DNA of 64,000 nucleotides from positions 2,973 through 66,972 of the forward strand of contig JBKEBO010000016.1 in the NCBI GenBank assembly GCA_047973205.1, read 5' to 3'. The notes under the pieces are model-generated. The model did not search any database. It saw nothing but the letters and a program-made list of their open reading frames with translations, and was not told where the DNA came from. The first letter of the stretch is position 1; every line of letters starts with the position of its first letter. This document shows, one piece after another, positions 7,015-54,140 of this stretch. Source of the DNA: Alphaproteobacteria bacterium. GTDB taxonomy: Bacteria > Pseudomonadota > Alphaproteobacteria > JBKEAR01. The translations under genes were made by a program, and so were the position numbers.

Positions 7015-7632
7015 TTAACGCGAGTAGAATTCCACCACAAGGTTGGGTTCCATCTGTACTGGGTAAGGTACATCGGCTAAGCCTGGAATACTGATATATT
7101 TACCGCTACGCTTATCTAAATCCACATCCATATAATCAGGAACATCACGCTCTGGCGATTGTACGGCGGCGATAACCATCGGAATTTGACGAGATTTTTC
7201 ACGCACTTCAACCACATCACCTGCCTTAACACGGTATGAGGGGATGTTCACTTTTTGACCATTCACAAAAATATGGCCATGGTTGATAAACTGGCGTGAT
7301 GCAAATACAGTTGGTACGAATTTCATACGGTAAACCACTGCATCTAAACGGGTTTCTAAAATACCAATCAGATTTTCGGATGTATCACCTGGGCGACGAG
7401 CGGCCTCGGCATAATAACGACGAAACTGCTTTTCTGTAATGTTGCCGTAATAGCCTTTTAGCTTCTGCTTTGCAGCAAGCTGAATACCATAATCTGAGAG
7501 TTTACCACGGCGGTTTTGGCCATGTTGACCTGGCCCGTAAGGGCGTGTATTTACTGGAGATTTTGCACGACCCCAAAGGTTAACACCAAAGCGGCGGTCG
7601 ATTTTGTATTTGGTTTGAATACGTCTTGTCAT
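7015..7632 (-). CDS. rpsD: 30S ribosomal protein S4
   Basis: 205 aa. The sequence [22 protein letters not shown]...[10 protein letters not shown]...S4 domain...NLVVEFYSR is unmistakable uS4. Confidence 0.97.
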
Positions 7633-7828
7633 AAAATTTTAATCCTTGCACATGTTTAGCTTTTGGAGATTCTCTCCATTGGCCGTCAGTTGTTATTTTT
7701 GTTCCAATTATCCGTTATAAAACAGAGGGATATACAATTACTCCATGGAGTTTTGCAATCCACTTTCTCGGACGTAGCGGTGATTATCATTAAAAATGGC
7801 CAATATGTCAATATCTTATTACTTTTAT

Positions 7829-8030
7829 GACCATAAAAATCCATTTTTATCCATTTTTGTCCATTTTTATCCGTAAAATATCCTCTTTAAACCAATTTAA
7901 GCCAAAAAAATCCTCCCATATACAACCAGCATCCTCATACTTTTAAGGGCAAGAAGTGTCATTTAAGGGATATTTTTTGTATTTTTATGGATAAAAATGG
8001 ACGAAAACGGGCAAATTTTGGCTAAATATG
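7829..8030. repeat. Phased-repeat inverted element, copy A (10-bp TCCATTTTTAT units)
   Basis: CC(A/G)T occurs at 7831, 7841, 7851, 7861 and 7871, with degenerate units continuing to 7911, in an exact 10-bp register. The inverse array has ATGG, ATGG and ACGG at 7987, 7997 and 8007. The architecture matches 32833-33115 and 49243-49458. Confidence 0.8.
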
Positions 8031-8660
8031 CCTTAAAATGAACTGTATACTCCCCTCTAATACCTCAGGAGCAATCATGTGTCCCATGCCTGTGACCATA
8101 TGATTTTCAGCTTCAATAGAAACTCTTTTAAGTTGAGAAACGGCTTGACCAAGAGCATCAGGAGTAATCGCCTCATCAGCCGTTCCATGCCATAATTGCA
8201 CAGGAGGATGTTGCTTAACTCCCTCATCGGCTATGTAAAGACCCGACCAGCCCACAATTGCTGCAGGAGCTTCACTTAAGCGTAATCCTGTATAAAGAGA
8301 CATCATACAACCCTGAGAAAATCCTGCAATAACAAGCTTTTGAGCGGGCATATCATATTTTTTAAGCTGCTCTTCAATATAGGATTTTAATATAGGATAA
8401 GCCGATTGAGCCCCTTGTAATAAGGCTTCAGGCGTACGTTCTAAAAGGCTAAACCACTGGCGATAACCCTCACCCATATCAATCTCGCATATTTGTGGAG
8501 CATCTGGAGCGAGAATAATAATATCTTCCCCCAAACGAGATTTAAAAAAATGTTTTAATCCAAAGAGATCCGCACCATTTGCTCCATAACCATGAAGCAG
8601 AATTAACATCATTTTTGCTTGGCCTTCAGGCTTATATTCATGGCTTATCAGTTCAGTCAT
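8022..8660 (-). CDS. Phospholipase/carboxylesterase family alpha/beta hydrolase
   Basis: 212 aa with LLHGYGANGADL, the nucleophile elbow GFSQG, and a late HGTADEAI...GHM segment. This is the typical YpfH/Est family layout. Confidence 0.8.
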   Translation of the reverse strand: MTELISHEYKPEGQAKMMLILLHGYGANGADLFGLKHFFKSRLGEDIIILAPDAPQICEIDMGEGYRQWFSLLERTPEALLQGAQSAYPILKSYIEEQLKKYDMPAQKLVIAGFSQGCMMSLYTGLRLSEAPAAIVGWSGLYIADEGVKQHPPVQLWHGTADEAITPDALGQAVSQLKRVSIEAENHMVTGMGHMIAPEVLEGSIQFILRHI

Positions 8661-12239: not shown

Positions 12240-13240
12240 TATTGTTGCGTCTTTTTATAGTTCATAACTGCATCATATAATTTATGATTTTCGGAGGTTT
12301 TTATCCGCCATTCATCTTGATAGGCTTGTAGAATGATTTCTGCTTTTTCTAAGTCTCGGGGTGAAAGCATTACAAAATGGTGGCCTCCTTCGGCTTTCAT
12401 TTTTGCATAAGCCTCCTGCGACTGCTTAAGTGTCTCTTTACCTATAAGCTCCGTAAACCAACCTTGAGAAACCTGCTCCAATGCTTGTTGGGATTTTTTT
12501 GAAAGCTGAGAAAACTTCTTTTTTGTCATAGGAAAAACAATTGCATTTCCACCCAAATAAAGATTTACCACATGATATTTGGTTACATCATTCATCTTAA
12601 AATTATAAACATTTCCCATATCCATTAAAGCCCCATCAATAACACCGCGATGGAGATTTTCTGCAATTTGAGGTGCTGTAATATTACTGACAGGAATGCC
12701 CCCAAGTCGACGAATGATTTCTGATTGTGCTGCACCCACAACACGGAATTTTAGACCTCTAATATCATCAAGCTTTTCTATTTTTTTTGCCGAATGGATA
12801 ATATAAGGGCCAACCTCCTGATAACCAAGAACTTTAAACTTATCAAGCCCTTTAACGAGTCCTTGATCACCTAAATACTGAGCTATTTTAGCACCTTCTA
12901 ACTCGTTAGAGAATAGATAGGGAAGCTCTAAAACATCCAGCCCTCGCACTCGTCCTGGTGTATAAGGAGTAACAACTTCTGCAATATCCAGAACAGCTTT
13001 TTCGATTAAATCTAGCTGAATTTTACCCCCTGAGCCTAATATCCCCCCAGGATAGTGTTTAACCTTAAGTTGCCCATCAGAAAGCTCTGCAACTTTTTCG
13101 ATGAAAGTTGGAATAATCACACGATTAGTTACCGTGGTTGCAGGTAAAAAATCTCCAAATTTTAGTGTATTTTCCTTTGCATAAGATATTAATGAAAAAA
13201 GTAATAAAAAGCAAAATGTTATACATTTTTTTAGATACAC
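12239..13240 (-). CDS. dctP: TRAP transporter periplasmic solute-binding subunit DctP family
   Basis: 333 aa with a signal peptide (FCFLLLFSLISYA). It has DctP-like motifs and is the first gene of the dctPQM order. Confidence 0.8.
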   Translation of the reverse strand: MYLKKCITFCFLLLFSLISYAKENTLKFGDFLPATTVTNRVIIPTFIEKVAELSDGQLKVKHYPGGILGSGGKIQLDLIEKAVLDIAEVVTPYTPGRVRGLDVLELPYLFSNELEGAKIAQYLGDQGLVKGLDKFKVLGYQEVGPYIIHSAKKIEKLDDIRGLKFRVVGAAQSEIIRRLGGIPVSNITAPQIAENLHRGVIDGALMDMGNVYNFKMNDVTKYHVVNLYLGGNAIVFPMTKKKFSQLSKKSQQALEQVSQGWFTELIGKETLKQSQEAYAKMKAEGGHHFVMLSPRDLEKAEIILQAYQDEWRIKTSENHKLYDAVMNYKKTQQ

Positions 13241-13275
13241 AATATTGTCCTTTATATATAATTACTATATGAAAA

Positions 13276-13325
13276 CTTATATATTTGATGCTCCAATATA
13301 CTTATATATTTGATGCTCCAATATA
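13276..13325. repeat. Perfect 2 x 25 bp tandem repeat upstream of dctP
   Basis: CTTATATATTTGATGCTCCAATATA occurs at 13276-13300 and 13301-13325, 36-85 bp upstream of the dctP start (minus strand). Confidence 0.9.
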
Positions 13326-13408
13326 ATATACTTGCTGTATAAATCAAGTTTCTTTTTATATAGGAATAAACAGTCTTTTTTGCTTACAAACAAGGAAAAT
13401 CAAGCCAT

Positions 13409-13660
13409 TTATTCTGTCTCAAGATAGAGCTCTACCGCATGTAATCCTTGATTAAAAAATGGGCTTAGAATTTCATTAACCATACGCTGGCGATTAACTT
13501 TACTTAAGCCTTCAAATTTTTCACTTATAATATAGACTCTTAAGTGACTAGCCTCTTTAACATGATCGCCATGGCCTAAATGTTCGCCTGAAAAATCCAT
13601 GAGCTTAATTTCACCATTTTCAAATTTTTCTTGGAGTGCGTTATAGATATCTTTAATCAT
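13409..13660 (-). CDS. bolA: BolA family protein
   Basis: 83 aa. The run FSGEHLGHGDH...SHLRVYIISEKFEGLSKVNRQRMV...LHAV matches the BolA fold signature. Confidence 0.8.
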   Translation of the reverse strand: MIKDIYNALQEKFENGEIKLMDFSGEHLGHGDHVKEASHLRVYIISEKFEGLSKVNRQRMVNEILSPFFNQGLHAVELYLETE

Positions 13661-13803
13661 TTTTTTCCCTTTATGTTAAATTTTAGAGATTAATTATAAG
13701 GGTAAAAATAAAAAAATTCTATAACATACATGATGATTTTTAAAATATTTCATGTTAATATCACCATAAAGCTGTTGTAGATAGATTAAAAGTTGAACGA
13801 ATC

Positions 13804-14619
13804 TTGGATAAATTTGTTATACGCCTGATTAAAATTATTTTATGGTTTCGATATAGAATCTCTGTTTCTGGCCTAGATGAAATCAAACAAGATTCTCGCC
13901 CTATTTTATTTGTTGCCAATCATCCATCCTTAAGTGATCCTCTTATTGTTATTCAGCTTTTATGGCATAAGTTTCATCCTAAAGCTTTGGTGAGAGACTT
14001 ACAAATCAACCGTCCGATTATTGGGGCTTGCATCCGTAGTTTTGAGCCCATATCCATGCCTGATATGCGTAAAGATGCTAAAAAAAAGGCAAGCTGGGCT
14101 CGTCAGTCTATTGAACTTACTAAGGAAGCTCTTGGCGATGGCCATAATATTCTTATTTGGCCTGCAGGTAAGCTTAGCCGCGATGGTTACGACTACTTTA
14201 TTCAGCGAAGTTCAACCCATCAGGTTTTTAAAAGCCGTAGTGATTGCCGCATTGTTGCTTTACGTTCCACAGGCATATGGGGAAGTCGTTCGAGCTGGTA
14301 TAATGGTCCAGACACACCTATTTGGAAAATTGGACTTATGGGGCTAATATTTATTCCACTAAACTTATTTTTCTTTATGCCCAAAAGACACATACATTAT
14401 GAAGTTCAGGAACTTAAAGAGCTAGAAGGATTAGAGCGAACTGCATTTAATACCCGCTTGCAAAATTATTTTAATGCCAAACCTCAGCCTGCACAAATCA
14501 CACCGCTCATGTGGTGGCATAAGGTAAGGTTCTCCCCTGCAAAAACTCCAAAAACAGCCGAAGAACTCTTACAAAAAGAAGAAAAACAACCGCCTCAAAA
14601 ACAAAAAGGAATATCTTAA
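13804..14619 (+). CDS. Lysophospholipid/glycerolipid acyltransferase (PlsC family), paralog 1
   Basis: TTG start. HX4D catalytic motif (NHPSLSDP) and a later PAGKLSRDG block. It shares the same architecture and many conserved blocks with the next ORF. Confidence 0.7.
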   Translation: MDKFVIRLIKIILWFRYRISVSGLDEIKQDSRPILFVANHPSLSDPLIVIQLLWHKFHPKALVRDLQINRPIIGACIRSFEPISMPDMRKDAKKKASWARQSIELTKEALGDGHNILIWPAGKLSRDGYDYFIQRSSTHQVFKSRSDCRIVALRSTGIWGSRSSWYNGPDTPIWKIGLMGLIFIPLNLFFFMPKRHIHYEVQELKELEGLERTAFNTRLQNYFNAKPQPAQITPLMWWHKVRFSPAKTPKTAEELLQKEEKQPPQKQKGIS

Positions 14620-16578: not shown

Positions 16579-16665
16579 GCGGGCGTGGTGGAATTGGTAG
16601 ACACGCAAGACTTAAAATCTTGTTCCCGATTGGGAGTGCCGGTTCGATTCCGGCCGCCCGCACCA
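16579..16665 (+). tRNA. tRNA-Leu (anticodon UAA), CCA encoded
   Basis: Acceptor stem GCGGGCG/CGCCCGC. Anticodon stem-loop CAAGA-CTTAAAA-TCTTG. It has a long variable arm, a T-arm GGTTCGATTCC, and a 3' ACCA. Confidence 0.93.
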
Positions 16666-22154: not shown

Positions 22155-23714
22155 TTAATCCTTTGGAATATTGAGGTTAAGAGTTTGGAAAGTTTTAGGA
22201 AAAGCTGTTTCAATCCATGCAATTGCCTCACCTGTAGCTACTGAAACTTCACAACGGTGGCTATCTGAAGAATTATCTTCCGTATCAGCCTTGCCCTCAT
22301 CACGGCAATCTTCGAGCTGATTAACTAAGATATTAGGCTTGAGTAAGAAACCTTTTTTATCATAGAGACGATAAGGGAGTCGCAACGGTATATTGCTATC
22401 ATCGCCATAATATTTTGGGTTGGTATTTAGCCCCAAAGCTAAAGGATTAAACGTCACCTTACGGCGGCCATCAGAAAATACAAGAGCACCATTATTTTCA
22501 TCATAGACATTAATTGCCATCTCTAAAGGATATTGTAATTTTACAGGCTTATCTGTCGGTATATTCTCAGGCAAAATAAGCTCGCCATCCCATGCAAGGT
22601 CATGGTCTTCACCTTCTATATCTGCGTAAATAGAATTGAGTGATGGGGGAAGCTCTATCTTATAGCTATTCTTATCTTTATGCAATTTTACTTTCTTTGT
22701 GATATCCTCTAAATTATAATAGCTGGGATGATAAAATGGGTTTTCTCCCATATAAATATACGAAGGTTTCCCTTTGATTTCCACCCATGGAATAGAAGCA
22801 CTTGCCTCTGTCTTTCCATTATAACTTTTTATATAAATATCACTAATATTTCCACTAGCAATAACTGCATAATATTTACCATCTTGCCAAATATTATCTT
22901 CATCTTCCACAATAATATCTCGCAAATATTGCCTTGATTTTAAAGGTATGGAGTTTCCCGCTTTATTTAAACGCTTTTTAATGGCAAGCGGTGTAATTTC
23001 AATATCAAGTGTATTTAATTTACGCCCCTGCTTATCTAAGAGAATAAGCTCGTGATTAGTATAGCCAATATCTTCTGTAAGTTCTCTCCATTCAACTTCA
23101 GCATAATTATTTTGTAGCTTTCGTAAAATTGCGATATTATTGGTATTATCGGTTGTTTGTTGAGGTTTATTGATATTCTTTTTATTTAAGATAGTTATAG
23201 AACAATTTTTGGGATAAGAAACTTCTAAATTACGATAAATATTTTTTGCTACATTCTTTTTATGACGCTTTTTAGGCTGCTTTTTGGGTATATGCCCACG
23301 GGGCATAATTTCTACTTTAGTAAGCTCTATACCTTGTGTTCCATCTTGCCGAATCCCATTAACAAAAGTTAGTTTATTATATTCTGGTTTTTCAGAACCA
23401 TCTTGCCAACTGAGTGTTGTATCATTTCCCCATGGGGATTCAAAAGGTTGAGTTGGGTCCTTGGCTATCTGAAATAAAGCCGCACGCATATCATTTTCAA
23501 TGGACTTTTCATCAGGACACAAAAAATAGTCTTCCATGCTATAATTATGCTCACCTGAAAATTCCTTACCCTCCATACGAGCTTCACTCAATTGCTTCAC
23601 ATAGCGATCAATTAACTGATCGGCTTTAGCTATTTCTTCTGGCTCAGTTTTTGTTGGTACTTCTGCCCAAAGATTCACATTGAATAACATCAAAAATAAT
23701 ATAAATTTTCTCAT
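22155..23714 (-). CDS. Hypothetical secreted protein (519 aa)
   Basis: Signal peptide MRKFILFLMLFNVNLWA and a basic patch PKKQPKKRHKKNVAK. I recognise no domain. It is packed 8 nt upstream of psuK and 12 nt downstream of rsmD. Confidence 0.6.
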   Translation of the reverse strand: MRKFILFLMLFNVNLWAEVPTKTEPEEIAKADQLIDRYVKQLSEARMEGKEFSGEHNYSMEDYFLCPDEKSIENDMRAALFQIAKDPTQPFESPWGNDTTLSWQDGSEKPEYNKLTFVNGIRQDGTQGIELTKVEIMPRGHIPKKQPKKRHKKNVAKNIYRNLEVSYPKNCSITILNKKNINKPQQTTDNTNNIAILRKLQNNYAEVEWRELTEDIGYTNHELILLDKQGRKLNTLDIEITPLAIKKRLNKAGNSIPLKSRQYLRDIIVEDEDNIWQDGKYYAVIASGNISDIYIKSYNGKTEASASIPWVEIKGKPSYIYMGENPFYHPSYYNLEDITKKVKLHKDKNSYKIELPPSLNSIYADIEGEDHDLAWDGELILPENIPTDKPVKLQYPLEMAINVYDENNGALVFSDGRRKVTFNPLALGLNTNPKYYGDDSNIPLRLPYRLYDKKGFLLKPNILVNQLEDCRDEGKADTEDNSSDSHRCEVSVATGEAIAWIETAFPKTFQTLNLNIPKD

Positions 23715-25089: not shown

Positions 25090-25536
25090 ATGTTTACACA
25101 ATATATGAAAATCGCATTAAACCAAGCAAAAAAAGCATCCTTACTTGGAGAAGTTCCTGTAGGAGCTGTTATAGTGGATAAAAATGGCGAAATTATCGCT
25201 CAATCCCATAATCGATGCGAGCAAGATTTTGATATATCGGCTCATGCTGAAATTTTAGCCATAAAAGAAGCGGCTCAAAAGCGACAAACAACTCGCCTTA
25301 TTGATTGCGACTTATGGGTCACCCTAGAGCCTTGTGCTATGTGTGCTACGGCCATATCTTTTGCTCGGATTAAACGCCTTTATTTTGGAGCATATGATAC
25401 AAAAAGTGGCGGGATTTTTTCAGGCCCTAAAATTTATACCCATCAAACAATCCACCACAAACCTGAGGTCTATGGTGGAATTATGGAAGATAATTGCAAA
25501 GAACTTATGCAAGACTTCTTTAAGCTTAAGCGGTAA
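25090..25536 (+). CDS. tadA: tRNA adenosine(34) deaminase
   Basis: CDA-fold zinc motifs HAEILAI and PCAMCATA. 148 aa. An internal ATG at codon 6 is an alternative start. Confidence 0.9.
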   Translation: MFTQYMKIALNQAKKASLLGEVPVGAVIVDKNGEIIAQSHNRCEQDFDISAHAEILAIKEAAQKRQTTRLIDCDLWVTLEPCAMCATAISFARIKRLYFGAYDTKSGGIFSGPKIYTHQTIHHKPEVYGGIMEDNCKELMQDFFKLKR

Positions 25537-30109: not shown

Positions 30110-32770
30110 ATGGTTACCAATAAAGAATTGAAATCAAACCTTAATGTCAATGGTAAAGACTATACAATCTTTTCTCTAAAAGATGCCCAAAATAAGCTTG
30201 GTATAAACTTAAATAAGCTTCCTTTTAGCCTAAAGATTCTAGCTGAAAATTTACTGCGTAACTTAGACGAACGCACTGTAACTGCTGAGGATATTAAAGC
30301 TTTAGAAGAATGGATTAAGAACGGCCATGTAAACCGTGAGATTGCTTACCGCCCTGCTCGTGTACTCATGCAAGATTTTACAGGTGTTCCAGCCGTAGTC
30401 GACCTAGCAGCTATGCGGCAAGCTATTTTTGATAAAGGGGGCGATGCAGATAAAATCAATCCTCTTTCTCCAGTAGATTTGGTTATTGACCATTCTATCA
30501 TGATTGACTTTTTTGGTGATGGAAGCTCTTTGGATAAAAACGAAAAACTTGAGTTTGAGCGTAACTTCGAACGCTATGCTTTTTTACGTTGGGGGCAAAA
30601 AGCCTTTAATAACTTTAGAGTCGTGCCTCCTGGAACAGGGATTTGTCACCAAGTTAATCTTGAATATTTAGCCAAAACCGTTTGGACAAAAGAAGAAGAT
30701 GGTCAAACCTTTGCTTATCCTGATACATTAGTGGGTACAGATAGCCATACCACAATGATTAACGGCCTTGGTGTTCTTGGTTGGGGTGTTGGTGGTATTG
30801 AGGCCGAGGCCGCTATGCTTGGCCAGCCTATATCTATGCTTATTCCTGATGTGATTGGCTTTGAACTTACAGGTAAACTTTCGGAAGGTGCTACGGCAAC
30901 CGATTTAGTCTTGCGTGTAGTCGAAATGCTTCGTCAAAAGGGCGTTGTGGGTAAGTTCGTTGAATTTTATGGCGAAGGTTTAAGAGAGCTTCCACTAACA
31001 GACCGTGCAACCATTGCTAATATGGCTCCTGAATATGGGGCGACATGTGGTATCTTCCCTATTGATAATGAAACACTCAACTACTTACGTTTTTCGGGGC
31101 GTGATGCTGATACTGTTGCTCTTGTTGAAGCCTATGCTAAAGAGCAAGGTATGTGGCGTGAAGATATGGAAACTCCTGTTTTCTCCGATACGCTTTCTTT
31201 AGATTTATCAACTGTAAAACCAGCTATTGCAGGGCCTAAACGTCCACAAGACCGTATTGATTTAGACCAAGCCAAAACATCATTTTTTGGTACTTTAAAG
31301 CAAGATGGCGGCCGTGATGCTCTAAAAGCTGTTGCTGTAAAAAATGCTGATTATGAACTCAATGATGGTAGCGTAATGATTGCCGCAATTACAAGCTGTA
31401 CCAATACGTCTAACCCATCAGTACTGATTGCCGCAGGGCTTGTTGCTAAAAAAGCTCACGCTCTTGGCTTAACCTCAAAACCTTGGGTAAAAACAAGCCT
31501 AGCCCCTGGCTCTTTAGTGGTTCGGGATTATTTAGCCGCTGCAGGATTACAAGAACATCTTGATGCTCTTGGTTTTAATATTGCGGGCTTTGGTTGTACC
31601 ACATGTATTGGTAACTCTGGACCTTTAGCCGATGAGTTGGTTGAGGCCATTAATGAGGGTGAGCTTTTTGTTTCGGCCGTTCTTTCGGGTAATAGAAACT
31701 TTGAGGGTCGTGTAAGTCCTCATACAAAAGCCAATTACTTAGCCTCTCCTCCTTTAGTTGTTGCCTATGCGATTGCAGGCTCAACGGCTGTAGATATCAC
31801 CACTGAAAGTCTTGGTAATGATAAAGATGGCAATCCTGTTTATCTTAAAGATATTTGGCCAACAAGTGATGAAATTAAAGCTATTTTATCCGAGGTTCTC
31901 AAACCAGAAATGTTTGCTAAAAGCTATGGAAGCGTATTTGAAGGTACAGCTGCATGGCAGAATATTGCGGCTCCTCAGGGCCAAGTTTTCGAATGGGATA
32001 ACAGCTCAACCTATATTCGTTTACCTTCCTTTTTTGAGGGTGAGCAAGGTGGCGAAGCCAAAAATATCACGGCAGCTCGTCCATTAGCTCTTTTAGGCGA
32101 TAGTATCACAACCGACCATATCTCTCCTGCTGGTGCGATTAAAGCCGATAGTCCTGCAGGTCGTTACCTCCAAGAAAATGGCGTAAGCCCTAAAGATTTT
32201 AACTCTTACGGTTCTCGCCGTGGTAACCATGAGGTCATGATGCGGGGTACATTTGCCAATATTCGTATCCGTAACGAAATGGCTCCTGGTACTGAGGGCG
32301 GTGTTACCAAGCATCAACCAACAGGCGAAGTTATGTCTATTTACGATGCCGCAATGCTCTATAAGGCTGAGGCTACACCACTTATTGTTATTGGCGGTAA
32401 GGAATATGGTACAGGCTCTTCTCGCGACTGGGCCGCTAAAGGGACTAATCTTTTAGGTGTAAGTGCTGTGATTGTGGAAAGCTTTGAGCGTATCCACCGT
32501 AGTAACCTTGTGGGTATGGGTATTCTTCCTTTACAATTTAAGGAAGGAACTGATCGTAAAACATTAAAGCTTGATGGCACAGAAACATTTGATATCAAAG
32601 GTTTAGAAAATGGTCTTAAGCCTGCTATGGATGTAAGCTTAACTATTCACCGTACCGATGGCTCATCAGAGGAAGTCTCTCTTCTTTGCCGTATCGATAC
32701 ACTCGATGAGATTGACTATTACCTAGCTGGTGGTATCTTGCAGCATGTTCTTGGTAACTTAGCTGGATAA
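30110..32770 (+). CDS. acnA: Aconitate hydratase A
   Basis: 886 aa. Fe-S ligand regions ([20 protein letters not shown]) and a swivel domain with the DHISPAG region. AGGAGG lies 8 nt upstream of the ATG. Confidence 0.96.
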
Positions 32771-32796
32771 TATTTTTAAGGCTTTAAACTAAGAAT

Positions 32797-32827
32797 AAAA
32801 GAGCTCCAATTTTGGGGCTCTTTTTTA
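32797..32827 (+). terminator. Rho-independent terminator of acnA
   Basis: GAGCTCC (32801-32807) / GGGGCTC (32814-32820) followed by TTTTTT. Confidence 0.7.
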
Positions 32828-32832
32828 TGCTC

Positions 32833-33115
32833 GCCCCTAGACTATTCTGATTAATATTTTATGCAAAATAAGTACTCCATATATATTTTTTAATACCCAA
32901 TTTTTACAAATTTTACCCATTTTAACCCATTTTTGACCATATTAGTCCATATTTATCCAATTTAAAGCATATTTTGCCAACTCATTTCATCAAGTTTCTT
33001 GCTTTCAACACCCTCACCATTTGCCATTATTTGGATTTTTATGGCCAATAAATGGATAAATATGGACTAATATGGACTAATATGGACAAAAATGGGCAAA
33101 GCCCCATTAATATTA
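32833..33115. repeat. Phased-repeat inverted element, copy B (best-preserved inverted repeat)
   Basis: Left arm has CCAT/CCAA at 32917, 32927, 32937, 32947, 32957... in an exact 10-bp register. Right arm has ATGG at 33052, 33062, 33072, 33082 and 33092. Left CCCATTTTTGACCATATTAGTCCATATTTATCCA matches the reverse complement of the right arm, apart from 2 mismatches and one 10-bp unit. Confidence 0.85.
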
Positions 33116-33125
33116 CAGATATCTA

Positions 33126-33971
33126 TCACCTCAATAAGCTATTGGGGTTTTTGGGGTTTATGCGATGATAAATCATTTTTCCTGATAATGCTCCTTTAAA
33201 TGCGGCATAAATCATTTGGTCTTTTTCACTATAGCGAGAACGCACATAATTTCCTTTGATATTTAATCGAGCCAAACTTCTATATTTTCTATAAAAATCA
33301 TCAACTTCTTTCGCTGTTAAAGGCCATAAATCAAAGTTTCTTGTGGCAAAGCTCGGATAGACTTTAATTAATTTTTCTGAGATTACTTTAAGTGGTGCTA
33401 TCAGTAAACTCTTAGGGTCAAATTTATCTACTCTTTTAATAGCAACACTATCCTTATTTTGCTTATTTATCAAAGTAATCTCAAGGTAATCTCCTAGATC
33501 TTTAATATCTCTAATCATAATATATTTATCTTGAGACGTATATTCATAAAACCCTTGAACATCATCTGATGTTAAAGGATTTTCGGCAAAATCTCGCCCC
33601 GAAAATATCGCTAAATCTCCTTTATATTCACTCAGCTCTTCATTCAAAACAACTGTATTTATAAGGGTTTGAGGCTCTTTAGGGTCAATTTGATGATGGA
33701 AAATTTCACCATCGCTTAACCGCTGTAAACTTAGCTTAAACATACCATCCTTGGGATAAATGGATTGCAGCCCTAATTCACCAATATTATCTTGTTGTTC
33801 TGTAAGCCAAATTTCATAAAAGTTTTCAATATCACCCATTGTGAGAGGTTTCTGATTAAAATCTCGTCCCTCTTCAAAGTAACTCTTAATATCAACTTCG
33901 GCATAAGCTATTGAAAAACTTAATAAATATATGATAATTGCATATAAGATATTTTTTGACATTTGAAGCAT
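33126..33971 (-). CDS. Hypothetical secreted protein with three internal ~85-aa repeats
   Basis: Signal peptide (IIIYLLSFSIAYA). Three repeats each begin with (R/G)(D/N)F---PLT--D(I/V)--FY and end with a (I/V)(D/N)P/DPK-P--L segment. No known domain recognised. Confidence 0.6.
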   Translation of the reverse strand: MLQMSKNILYAIIIYLLSFSIAYAEVDIKSYFEEGRDFNQKPLTMGDIENFYEIWLTEQQDNIGELGLQSIYPKDGMFKLSLQRLSDGEIFHHQIDPKEPQTLINTVVLNEELSEYKGDLAIFSGRDFAENPLTSDDVQGFYEYTSQDKYIMIRDIKDLGDYLEITLINKQNKDSVAIKRVDKFDPKSLLIAPLKVISEKLIKVYPSFATRNFDLWPLTAKEVDDFYRKYRSLARLNIKGNYVRSRYSEKDQMIYAAFKGALSGKMIYHRINPKNPNSLLR

Positions 33972-49216: not shown

Positions 49217-49242
49217 AAAGAAATATATATAGGAAAATATTC

Positions 49243-49458
49243 CACCCATATTTATCCATTTTTATCCGTATTTATCCACTTTAAGTCCATTTCTATCCAA
49301 ATTTAACCATTTTTTGGCAAGAATTGATAAATCAATTTGATTAAAAAATAAATTTTGATTAATTAAATTTTGCAAATTTTTGGCTATTTGTGGTTATAAA
49401 TAGCCTCAAGCTGGATAAATATGGACAAATTCGGACAAAATATGTTCATTTATGGCTA
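49243..49458. repeat. Phased-repeat inverted element, copy C
   Basis: Left arm: CCAT 49246, CCAT 49256, CCGT 49266, CCAC 49276, then CCAT 49287, CCAA 49297 and CCAT 49307. Right arm: CTGG 49411, ATGG 49421, TCGG 49431 and ATGG 49452. The arm ends on the TAG of the FkbM gene. Confidence 0.8.
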
Positions 49459-50286
49459 ATCAGATACCCTAAGAGAGAAGGATAAATTATTCCCTTCTCG
49501 CTCAAATGAAATATGCCGTCCATGGGATGGATGCTGAACAAAAATATCGCCATCTAATCTCTTGAAATCATCATAACCCAAAGATGTTAAAAAGTCTTTG
49601 GTTTTCTCAGCTTTTTCCTTATACCAATCACGCCCTTTCCAAAGCTCAAACATAATCGGTGGATAGTTATTTTTCTTTAATGTCTCTACCGCCCCTTTAA
49701 AGAATTCAAGCTCAAGCCCTTCAACATCTACCTTAATAAAGGCAACATTTTCAAAGAGTTCAAAGCTATCTAAAGTTTGCATCGATACTTTAAAAGGTGT
49801 GCTATCTTGAAGTTCAACATTATAAAGAACACCTGCTTCTTCATAGGCTTTCTTAAGATTTTCTCTAACGGACGGATCAACCGAAAAAGCTCCGATATGG
49901 CCACTTTTTGCAAAATCCATCTCTGGGATTTCTATGATTGAATTCTCCTCACCTAAAGCAATATTATGGGTATAGACATTATCAAGTTGGTTAATGAATA
50001 TATTTGCACAAAGCTGTTGAAAAACAATACGTTGAGGCTCAAAACTGAAAATTTTTCCTTTTCTACCCATCAAATGTTGAGCTATAGGAATGGTAAAACT
50101 GCCTAAATTTGCCCCTGCATCAATAACAATAGCTGCCTCTGTTTTATGGAGAAATGCTTGACAAATTTGATGTTCCACATTCCCCCAACGTCCCCTTTGC
50201 TTAATCGTATTTGAGAGTAAGTCCGAGCCATTTATTAATAGCCAAGTTGTTTCTTTTTCACGAATAATATCAACACGGGGTAACAC
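49456..50286 (-). CDS. FkbM-family SAM-dependent methyltransferase
   Basis: SAM motif I VIDAGANLGSFT and an FkbM-type core (FEPQ...IKVDVEGLE). 276 aa. Confidence 0.75.
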   Translation of the reverse strand: MLPRVDIIREKETTWLLINGSDLLSNTIKQRGRWGNVEHQICQAFLHKTEAAIVIDAGANLGSFTIPIAQHLMGRKGKIFSFEPQRIVFQQLCANIFINQLDNVYTHNIALGEENSIIEIPEMDFAKSGHIGAFSVDPSVRENLKKAYEEAGVLYNVELQDSTPFKVSMQTLDSFELFENVAFIKVDVEGLELEFFKGAVETLKKNNYPPIMFELWKGRDWYKEKAEKTKDFLTSLGYDDFKRLDGDIFVQHPSHGRHISFEREGNNLSFSLRVSD

Positions 50287-50364
50287 CTTATTTCTCCTAT
50301 CATTATTAATTATGCGTACAACTATACTACATGTTTAACAACTATTTTCAACAAAAATTATGAC

Positions 50365-54019: not shown

Positions 54020-54140
54020 ACTGCGTGTGGGCATAATATTAATGGGGCTTTGCCCCCGCAGGCTCTCCACCCGATAGGATATAATACTGCGTGTGGGCAT
54101 AATATTAATGGGGCTTTGCCCCTATGCTTTATTCTGAAAA
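54020..54140. repeat. Mosaic intergenic repeat: 2 x 37 bp direct repeat, GC-rich module and Y module
   Basis: ACTGCGTGTGGGCATAATATTAATGGGGCTTTGCCCC occurs at 54020-54056 and 54086-54122. The 29-bp segment between them resembles the GC module at 5342-5365. CTATGCTTTATTCTGAAA (54122-54139) recurs at 29791-29808. Confidence 0.9.

Follow-up and report, generated by a model that had tools for sequence, protein, structure and literature searches.

What is the sequence that fills the gap between acnA and the convergent gene downstream of it (33126-33971) in a 64-kb stretch of alphaproteobacterial DNA (contig JBKEBO010000016.1, positions 2,973 to 66,972; the whole stretch is called the window below)? 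A preliminary description of the locus had noticed an inverted repeat built of phased decamers and had offered three explanations for it: a bidirectional terminator or insulator, a relic resembling a miniature inverted-repeat transposable element (MITE), and a symmetric protein-binding array. Our analysis shows that this sequence, here named copy B, belongs to a small, clade-specific family of intergenic repeats (150-220 bp each) with at least three members. Both of the latter explanations fit the data, since another copy (copy A) is missing from the same spacer in four relatives and an exact inverted pair of 13-mers occurs in every copy. We tentatively favour a non-autonomous MITE- or foldback-like element, whose arms would be phased, curved multi-site arrays for one DNA-binding protein and would be resized by slippage. 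We give this reading a probability of about 0.45.

Phased decamers around an invariant 13-mer

Strict pattern matching missed the third copy, C, which came to light when nhmmer was run with a profile made from both arms of A and both of B (E = 7e-6 and 1e-3). The copies measure 183-217 bp and hold no open reading frame (ORF) of 60 aa or more. Their arms are runs of a decamer with the consensus TTTRTCCATW, derived from 37 units spaced 10 and occasionally 11 bp apart. Embedded in the arms is the exact 13-mer CCATWTTTATCCA, which comprises two CCA motifs one helical turn apart and matches the window seven times against 0.01 expected. Each copy carries one inverted pair of this core (Table 1). The distance between paired cores varies (106 bp in B, 135 bp in a short copy of relative L249 described below, 147 bp in A and 166 bp in C), and the similarity of the units declines with distance from the core. 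Across A, B and C the arms can be aligned, but the centres, of 80-100 bp, cannot. The survival of the exact 13-mer pair in every copy, while centres and outer units drift, thus suggests that the arms are read by something sequence-specific. One stray exact 13-mer (CCATTTTTATCCA, 25175-25187, minus strand) lies inside a tadA-like deaminase gene and has neither a partner nor flanking units.

The inverted repeat of copy B extends over 51 nt (32912-32962 against 33050-33100, 84% complementary, with 87 nt between the arms), and the right arm contains four in-register decamers. The pattern ATGG-N6-ATGG-N6-ATGG matches the window seven times against 0.00 expected from 100 shuffles, every match falling inside copy A or B. 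The symmetry and the phasing pointed out in the preliminary description were thus both confirmed. Folding gave a similar picture: copy B folds far better than expected as single-stranded DNA (z = -6.9) and as RNA (-70 kcal/mol, z = -5.0), with none of 200 shuffles folding as well in either case. The arms are shorter in the other copies, namely 33 nt (85%) plus 15 nt (100%) in A and 13 nt (100%) in C, and a core-anchored test for concerted evolution found the complementarity of arms within an element to be clearly raised in B only.

Some details had to be amended. A 34-nt segment of the left arm had been said to equal the reverse complement of the right arm save for one extra unit and two mismatches; the extra unit, ATTAGTCCAT, is indeed present, with one mismatch rather than two. 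The CCAT/CCAA register proposed for the left arm breaks at 32967 (GCAT) and 32987 (TCAT) and holds elsewhere, the units growing more degenerate outward. The degenerate units reported as far back as 32877 are probably native flank, since 32830-32895 aligns with the DNA that follows the acnA terminator in an element-free relative; the start of copy B was placed at about 32897 for this reason. The suggestion that unit number varies by slippage fits a perfect tandem duplication, ATGGACTAAT x2, which is present solely in the right arm and looks like a fresh example of a slippage footprint.

Table 1. Coordinates (in the window) of the element copies, the parts of copy B and adjoining features.
Feature	Position	Strand	Description
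rpsD promoter-like site	7783-7811	-	TTGACA-17-GATAAT, 11/12 matches; TTGACA and leader conserved in relatives
Copy A	7841-8023		183 bp; cores 7841-7853 (+) and 7988-8000 (-)
acnA intrinsic terminator	32797-32826	+	12-bp stem and U6, -16.6 kcal/mol, z = -3.8
Copy B	~32897-33105		~210 bp, non-coding; between convergent genes acnA (+) and 33126-33971 (-)
Copy B, left arm	32897-32989		~9 decamer units; CCAT/CCAA at 32897, 32917-32957 and 32977
Copy B, left 13-mer core	32947-32959	+	CCATATTTATCCA, exact match
Copy B, central spacer	32990-33040		differs between copies (A/B/C alignment); no Rfam family
Copy B, right arm	33041-33101		6 decamer units ATGGnnnnnn
Copy B, right 13-mer core	33053-33065	-	reads TGGATAAATATGG on the + strand
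Tandem duplication in copy B	33062-33081	+	ATGGACTAAT x2, perfect; right arm only, left arm without counterpart
22-mer at copy B	33094-33115	-	reads TAATATTAATGGGGCTTTGCCC, 10 nt past the stop of 33126-33971, then AUUUUUG
Copy C	49242-49458		cores 49246-49258 (+) and 49412-49424 (-); nhmmer arm profile
37-bp GC-rich hairpin unit	54020-54056, 54086-54122	+	ACTGCGTGTGGGCATAATATTAATGGGGCTTTGCCCC x2, exact; contains the 22-mer

The units of the family are phased T- or A-tracts. In a dinucleotide wedge model, whose values are indicative only, no predicted curvature peak in the 64 kb exceeds those of the arms of A and B, which take the first two ranks (z ~8); copy C ranks ninth. Further strong peaks of predicted curvature, at 23712, 17051, 28230, 59631 and 13153, apparently lie at or near gene boundaries or promoter regions and are devoid of the decamer motif. 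Copies A, B and C also share one polarity on the plus strand: the left arm is the longer of the two and ends in ...TATCCAATTTAAACCATTTTTTGCCAA, and the right arm has the form ...TGGATAAATATGGACAAA..GGGCAAATTTTGGCTAA. The GC skew is negative throughout the window. With only three copies to go by, insertion or retention may be biased with respect to the replication strand. A conserved peptide or small RNA in the centre of the element was considered and rejected, because centres do not align between copies and the small ORFs read in those of A and B bear no relation to each other.

Occupied and empty sites in sister species

The window is ordinary chromosomal DNA of an alphaproteobacterium with 39% G+C, including a GcrA gene, a class I lysyl-tRNA synthetase gene and housekeeping genes throughout. 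Its closest match to AcnA among the GTDB species representatives is 70% identical, so no close species is present in GTDB. Proteins identical to those of the window were found only in Logan assemblies of runs SRR300672xx, which are land-crab gut metagenomes (BioProject PRJNA1141481). The same crab samples contain sister species, with AcnA 81-88% and ribosomal protein S4 89-92% identical. About 200 kb of DNA from these relatives yielded one short copy of the element, compared with three in the 64-kb window.

Copy A provides the clearest case of a difference between relatives. It lies between the last codons of an abhydrolase gene and the promoter region of rpsD, two genes in tandem, and recurs in identical form in two independent assemblies, L082 and L083. 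Four relatives (L239, L240, L242 and L246; S4 89-90% identical) have the abhydrolase gene and rpsD in the same arrangement, but there the spacer measures 193-227 bp as opposed to 389 bp in the window. Alignment of the spacers showed the whole 183-bp copy A to be missing from all four, with collinearity preserved at the rpsD -35 hexamer, in the leader and where the abhydrolase gene ends. This clean absence from a conserved spacer indicates that the family gains or loses copies. The abhydrolase ends in ...HIL* in the relatives and in ...HI* here, where the right end of copy A (GGCTAA) supplies the TAG codon. The outer end of the left arm lies about 20 bp from the rpsD -35 hexamer.

In L239 (1670-1720), the closest of the relatives that have this spacer, about 40 extra bp stand exactly at the insertion point of copy A. 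Among them is AAGCCAAAATTATTTGC, similar to the element's right terminus, AGCCAAAATTTGCC; it may have been left by a deletion, may represent a proto-site or may be a chance match. The contig of another relative, L248 (S4 92% identical), starts exactly where copy A would begin, and an independent short-read contig, L001, ends 2 nt past the stop codon beside copy B. Contig ends at element edges are consistent with assembly breaks at a repeat.

At site B, relative L234 carries a 490-aa gene (12809-14281, no Pfam match) between acnA and its homologue of the minus-strand gene, the position taken by copy B in the window. A classic bidirectional terminator lies there after the 490-aa gene and before the homologue. 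The minus-strand gene had been taken for an orphan; its homologue in the relative, 47% identical and likewise convergent with acnA, shows that it is not one. As for acnA, its intrinsic terminator lies upstream of and outside copy B and has positional equivalents in L234, L236 and L237.

Copy C lies between an ABC-F gene (plus strand) and an FkbM-type methyltransferase gene (minus strand), and its right end overlaps the FkbM stop codon. The synteny from PntAB to RecA is shared with relative L249, whose ABC-F protein is 76% identical. In L249, the convergent spacer between ABC-F and PepF (154 bp) contains the element in short form, CCATTTTTATCCA ... TGGATAAATATGG; its pair of exact cores (11799/11934) adjoin both stop codons and flank a genuine bidirectional terminator hairpin (12-bp stem, z = -4.1). 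The FkbM-family gene (49456-50364), which has its own Shine-Dalgarno and promoter-like sequence, lies between copy C and PepF in the window and is not found at the syntenic locus of L249. Given the extra FkbM gene at C and the missing 490-aa gene at B, both of these elements fall at places where sister species differ in gene content. Since a block with arms of the family type was gained or lost in just one lineage at site A and occupancy differs at further sites, the family is both copied and lost. A stretch beside the PepF stop codon, AAAAATTATGACTTA, resembles the right terminus of the L249 element, AAATATGGCTTA; the sequence hints that the FkbM gene may have been inserted into or beside the element.

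Mobile element, host array or terminator

We picture the arms as head-to-tail arrays of sites that all face one side of the helix and would be bound by a single sequence-specific protein, most simply a transposase or recombinase that an autonomous partner encodes elsewhere in the genome. Copies would insert in AT-rich DNA directly at gene ends, and the arrays would lengthen and shorten through replication slippage. The effects on neighbouring genes would be incidental: new stop codons (abhydrolase, FkbM), a curved stretch ahead of the rpsD promoter, and the long hairpin that any read-through RNA would form.

A number of observations weigh against this interpretation. The arms are only about 70-85% alike between copies and the centres are unrelated, so that there is no sign of the recent bursts that near-identical copies would betray. 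The exact cores are terminal at the left end of A and at both ends of the L249 copy, but lie 36-50 bp inside the arm in B, an arrangement unusual for transposase-bound termini. Candidate target-site duplications at copy A (AAAT or TAA) are too short and AT-rich to judge, and nothing consistent was seen at B, C or the L249 copy; an empty site defines the boundaries of copy A alone. No transposase or integrase, PF00589 included, was detected among the approximately 55 window ORFs scanned with Pfam, nor among the Pfam families listed for called genes at the relatives' loci. Finally, the presence of a copy at the orthologous ABC-F site of a diverged relative could reflect long vertical retention under selection, which would favour a function for the host.

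Such a function is what the strongest of the alternatives proposes. The arrays would be landing pads for a host protein rather than selfish DNA: the protein would nucleate on the 13-mer, spread along the units and bridge the arms, and would thereby organise or insulate gene ends or be itself titrated. A winged-helix response regulator, a nucleoid-associated protein that recognises curved DNA, or an oligomerising protein like DnaA might play this part. The 13-mer pairs are exact although all else has diverged, including at the orthologous ABC-F site, and the helical phasing of 10-11 bp is kept together with strong predicted curvature. The decay of similarity outward from the core is as expected for a nucleation site with weaker flanking sites, copy A is placed immediately ahead of a strong promoter for a ribosomal protein, and the unit TTATCCAT matches the DnaA box TTATCCACA at 7 of 9 positions. 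Host arrays do not, however, account for the appearance of a 183-bp block of the family type in the abhydrolase-rpsD spacer of one lineage. Moreover, the distance between cores is variable, two of the three copies stand between convergent genes, where no promoter is available for regulation, and no candidate binding protein was identified. A DnaA-box cluster (as in oriC, datA or DARS) was rejected, as only two units come within one mismatch of TTATCCACA (boxes with up to two mismatches are about 4-fold enriched); CtrA and GANTC motifs are absent from the elements. On balance we regard host arrays as less likely than the mobile element, with the proviso that the readings considered here overlap in part: a mobile module could have been co-opted by its host.

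The likeness to the oppositely oriented DnaA-box arrays of oriC, and to the two iteron blocks of plasmid R1 parC, resides in two symmetric blocks of phased sites and in a high-affinity site that nucleates weaker neighbours. The element differs from both in lacking a skew switch and dnaA, dnaN or par genes, and in occurring three times within 64 kb. An origin of replication was rejected on these grounds: GC skew is negative over the whole window and its cumulative curve is monotonic, with no inflection, and none of those genes is present.

A related and less probable idea is that the copies represent a new class of chromosomal nucleoprotein element, a symmetric array, phased with the helix and intrinsically curved, in which a host protein nucleates on CCATWTTTATCCA, polymerises outward and pairs the arms, the module being copied around the genome and resized by slippage. 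Were it true, wrapped complexes at gene ends might insulate transcription units or titrate the protein.

A third alternative is improbable. The copies could be miniature att-type elements, either remnants or mini integrative elements mobilisable in cis by a tyrosine recombinase, with the decamers as arm-type sites of opposite orientation on the two sides, as in lambda attP or in attL together with attR. Direct repeats of 10 bp, opposite in the two arms and spanning about 200 bp overall, recall the arm-type sites of lambda-like attP, as well as the ends bound by TnsB and MuA, where several repeats of about 10-22 bp stand on each side in opposite orientation with bent DNA between them. A phage contig (L106, 3480-3660) provides a parallel: directly after a tyrosine integrase gene (PF00589) it carries ATGGACAAAA four times in 10-bp phase, together with inverted TTTGTCCAT copies, a textbook-like array of arm-type sites with nearly the same decamer. 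It counts, as an analogue only, for the MITE- or foldback-like reading as well, in showing that arrays of this sort do act as recombinase binding sites. The differences in gene content at B and C would also fit. Against this, the resemblance to the phage is one of analogy and not of homology, neither BLAST nor the paired-core pattern giving a match in the phage, plasmid and viral sets. There is no integrase gene in the window or at the relatives' loci, and the three targets are unrelated, with no definable common core or flanking direct repeat, no core-type sites and no conserved 5'-TG...CA-3' termini. No tRNA or classic attB is nearby, the sole tRNA of the window (16579-16662) being also its only Rfam match above the gathering threshold. 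A lambda-type att site proper was rejected, there being no PF00589 protein in the window and no core common to the boundaries. Direct repeats laid out like arm-type sites do occur.

The least probable explanation is the bidirectional terminator or insulator of the preliminary description, in which the long AT-rich RNA hairpin of the arms would stop or process transcripts from either side: the strong RNA fold, the two copies between convergent genes, the terminator hairpin enclosed by the short L249 copy and a duplex of 35-50 bp that would be a plausible substrate for RNase III are all in its favour, but acnA already ends in a canonical, conserved terminator of its own, a scan found no terminator-like site in 32600-33400 or in 7500-8200 and hence none in copy A or B, the stems are AT-rich with loops of 87-150 nt and no U-tracts, copy A stands between tandem genes and is absent from relatives expressing the same two genes, and termination needs neither an invariant 13-mer nor a 10-bp phasing. 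As the primary role of the element, it is not supported.

Known repeats, an adjoining hairpin unit and neighbouring features

Bacterial intergenic repeats are usually simple palindromes, such as REP and ERIC, or MITEs with plain terminal repeats. With bacterial MITEs (Correia of Neisseria, RUP, the IS630-derived Nezha) the family shares short (below 600 bp), non-coding, intergenic copies with inverted arms, several per genome and present or absent between relatives; MITEs too can supply stop codons and alter nearby promoters. Known MITEs, however, have simple terminal repeats of about 15-40 bp, a defined target duplication (TA, for example) and near-identical copies, interiors included, whereas here the arms are variable numbers of phased decamers, the interiors are unrelated, and neither a target duplication nor a partner transposase can be defined. 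Foldback transposons of Drosophila and other eukaryotes offer a likeness in architecture only: long inverted arms of short tandem repeats that vary in number from copy to copy and from arm to arm, around a centre that is unrelated or absent. The arms of the Drosophila foldback (FB) elements contain 10-, 20- and 31-bp repeats. FB elements are eukaryotic and kilobase-sized, unlike the present family, and we know of no prokaryotic counterpart of them. REP, BIME and REPIN sequences with their RAYT transposases are likewise intergenic, lie just after stop codons, form inverted hairpin pairs, and are clade-specific and dynamic in number. They are GC-rich imperfect palindromes of 20-40 nt with a conserved 5' tetranucleotide, whereas the phased element is AT-rich and has no such palindrome. 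A REP or REPIN identity was rejected accordingly, the arms being AT-rich tandem decamers and only the adjoining 22-mer and 37-mer being of the hairpin type.

No library that we searched contained a matching family, and to our knowledge no bacterial repeat family of such architecture has been described. Variable decamer arms around an invariant 13-mer would represent either a prokaryotic counterpart of foldback elements or a portable multi-site protein-binding module. The family touches host genes, replacing the stop codon of two of them and placing curved DNA close upstream of the rpsD -35 hexamer. It marks positions at which sister species of an uncultured symbiont of the land-crab gut differ in gene content, it breaks short-read assemblies (L001, L248), and it could also serve as a strain marker in the crab metagenomes. 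It is best filed with MITEs and intergenic repeats until a partner protein is found, the comparative evidence being clean at one site and the mechanism conjectural.

The preliminary description had tied copy B to GC-rich repeats near 54 kb through a 22-mer at its right end. The 22-mer, GGGCAAAGCCCCATTAATATTA, does occur at exactly three sites (33094 on the plus strand, 54034 and 54100 on the minus strand) against 0.01 expected, and is identical in all of them. The two sites at 54 kb are parts of a 37-bp hairpin unit that lies after an AMP-binding gene and before pyruvate kinase. This repeat is lineage-specific, since the syntenic spacer of L249 measures only 53 bp and holds a canonical terminator and no 37-bp unit. 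The overlap between the 22-mer and the last decamer of the right arm is limited to GGGCAAA, where copy A reads ACGGGCAAAT, and neither copy A, copy C nor the L249 copy has the remainder of the 22-mer, GCCCCATTAATATTA. The family link was therefore abandoned: the 22-mer belongs to the separate 37-bp unit. On the coding strand, TAATATTAATGGGGCTTTGCCC trails a stop codon by 10-18 nt both at copy B and at 54 kb, and forms a small GGGGC/GCCCC hairpin whose fold is weak (z = -1.1). Both the 22-mer and the 37-bp unit look REP-like, and the former reads as a separate REP-like or mini-terminator module that merely abuts the element.

Other searches concerned the element at large. Within 32750-33150, Rfam searched at a permissive E-value returned only sub-threshold matches to long-hairpin miRNA models. 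Integron attC sites (RYYYAAC ... GTTRRRY) were rejected, as neither motif occurs in A or B and a single, chance-like occurrence lies in the left arm of C. BLAST of copy B against plasmids and phages gave no match. The paired-core pattern, defined as CCATWTTTATCCA-N(60-250)-TGGATAAAWATGG, had 0 matches in viral contigs, where the three-unit pattern retrieved generic tandem decamers only. A metagenome scan for ATGGACNAAAANGGGCAAA returned at least 120 loci, nearly all of them chance or coding matches, with no family member among them. In the contigs L168, L226 and L183, unrelated 10-bp tandem arrays (AAAACGGGCA/AAAATGGACA, 6-8 units) are followed by AT-rich low-complexity DNA, and L149 carries a further unrelated 10-bp A-tract array recovered by the ATGGACNAAAANGGGCAAA scan.

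Two neighbouring features deserve mention. The rpsD leader (7633-7782, about 150 nt) is well conserved across relatives, with the blocks CCGAGAAAGTGGA, CATATCCCTCTGTTTTATAA and AATAACAACTGA; this conservation suggests a structured, autoregulatory S4 leader, and the leader had no Rfam match at the gathering threshold. The product of the gene at 33126-33971 is 281 aa long, has an N-terminus resembling a signal peptide and matches no Pfam family. With only 47% identity to its homologue in the relative, this protein evolves fast, and it appears to be internally repetitive, with recurring ...NPLT..D...FYE... motifs.

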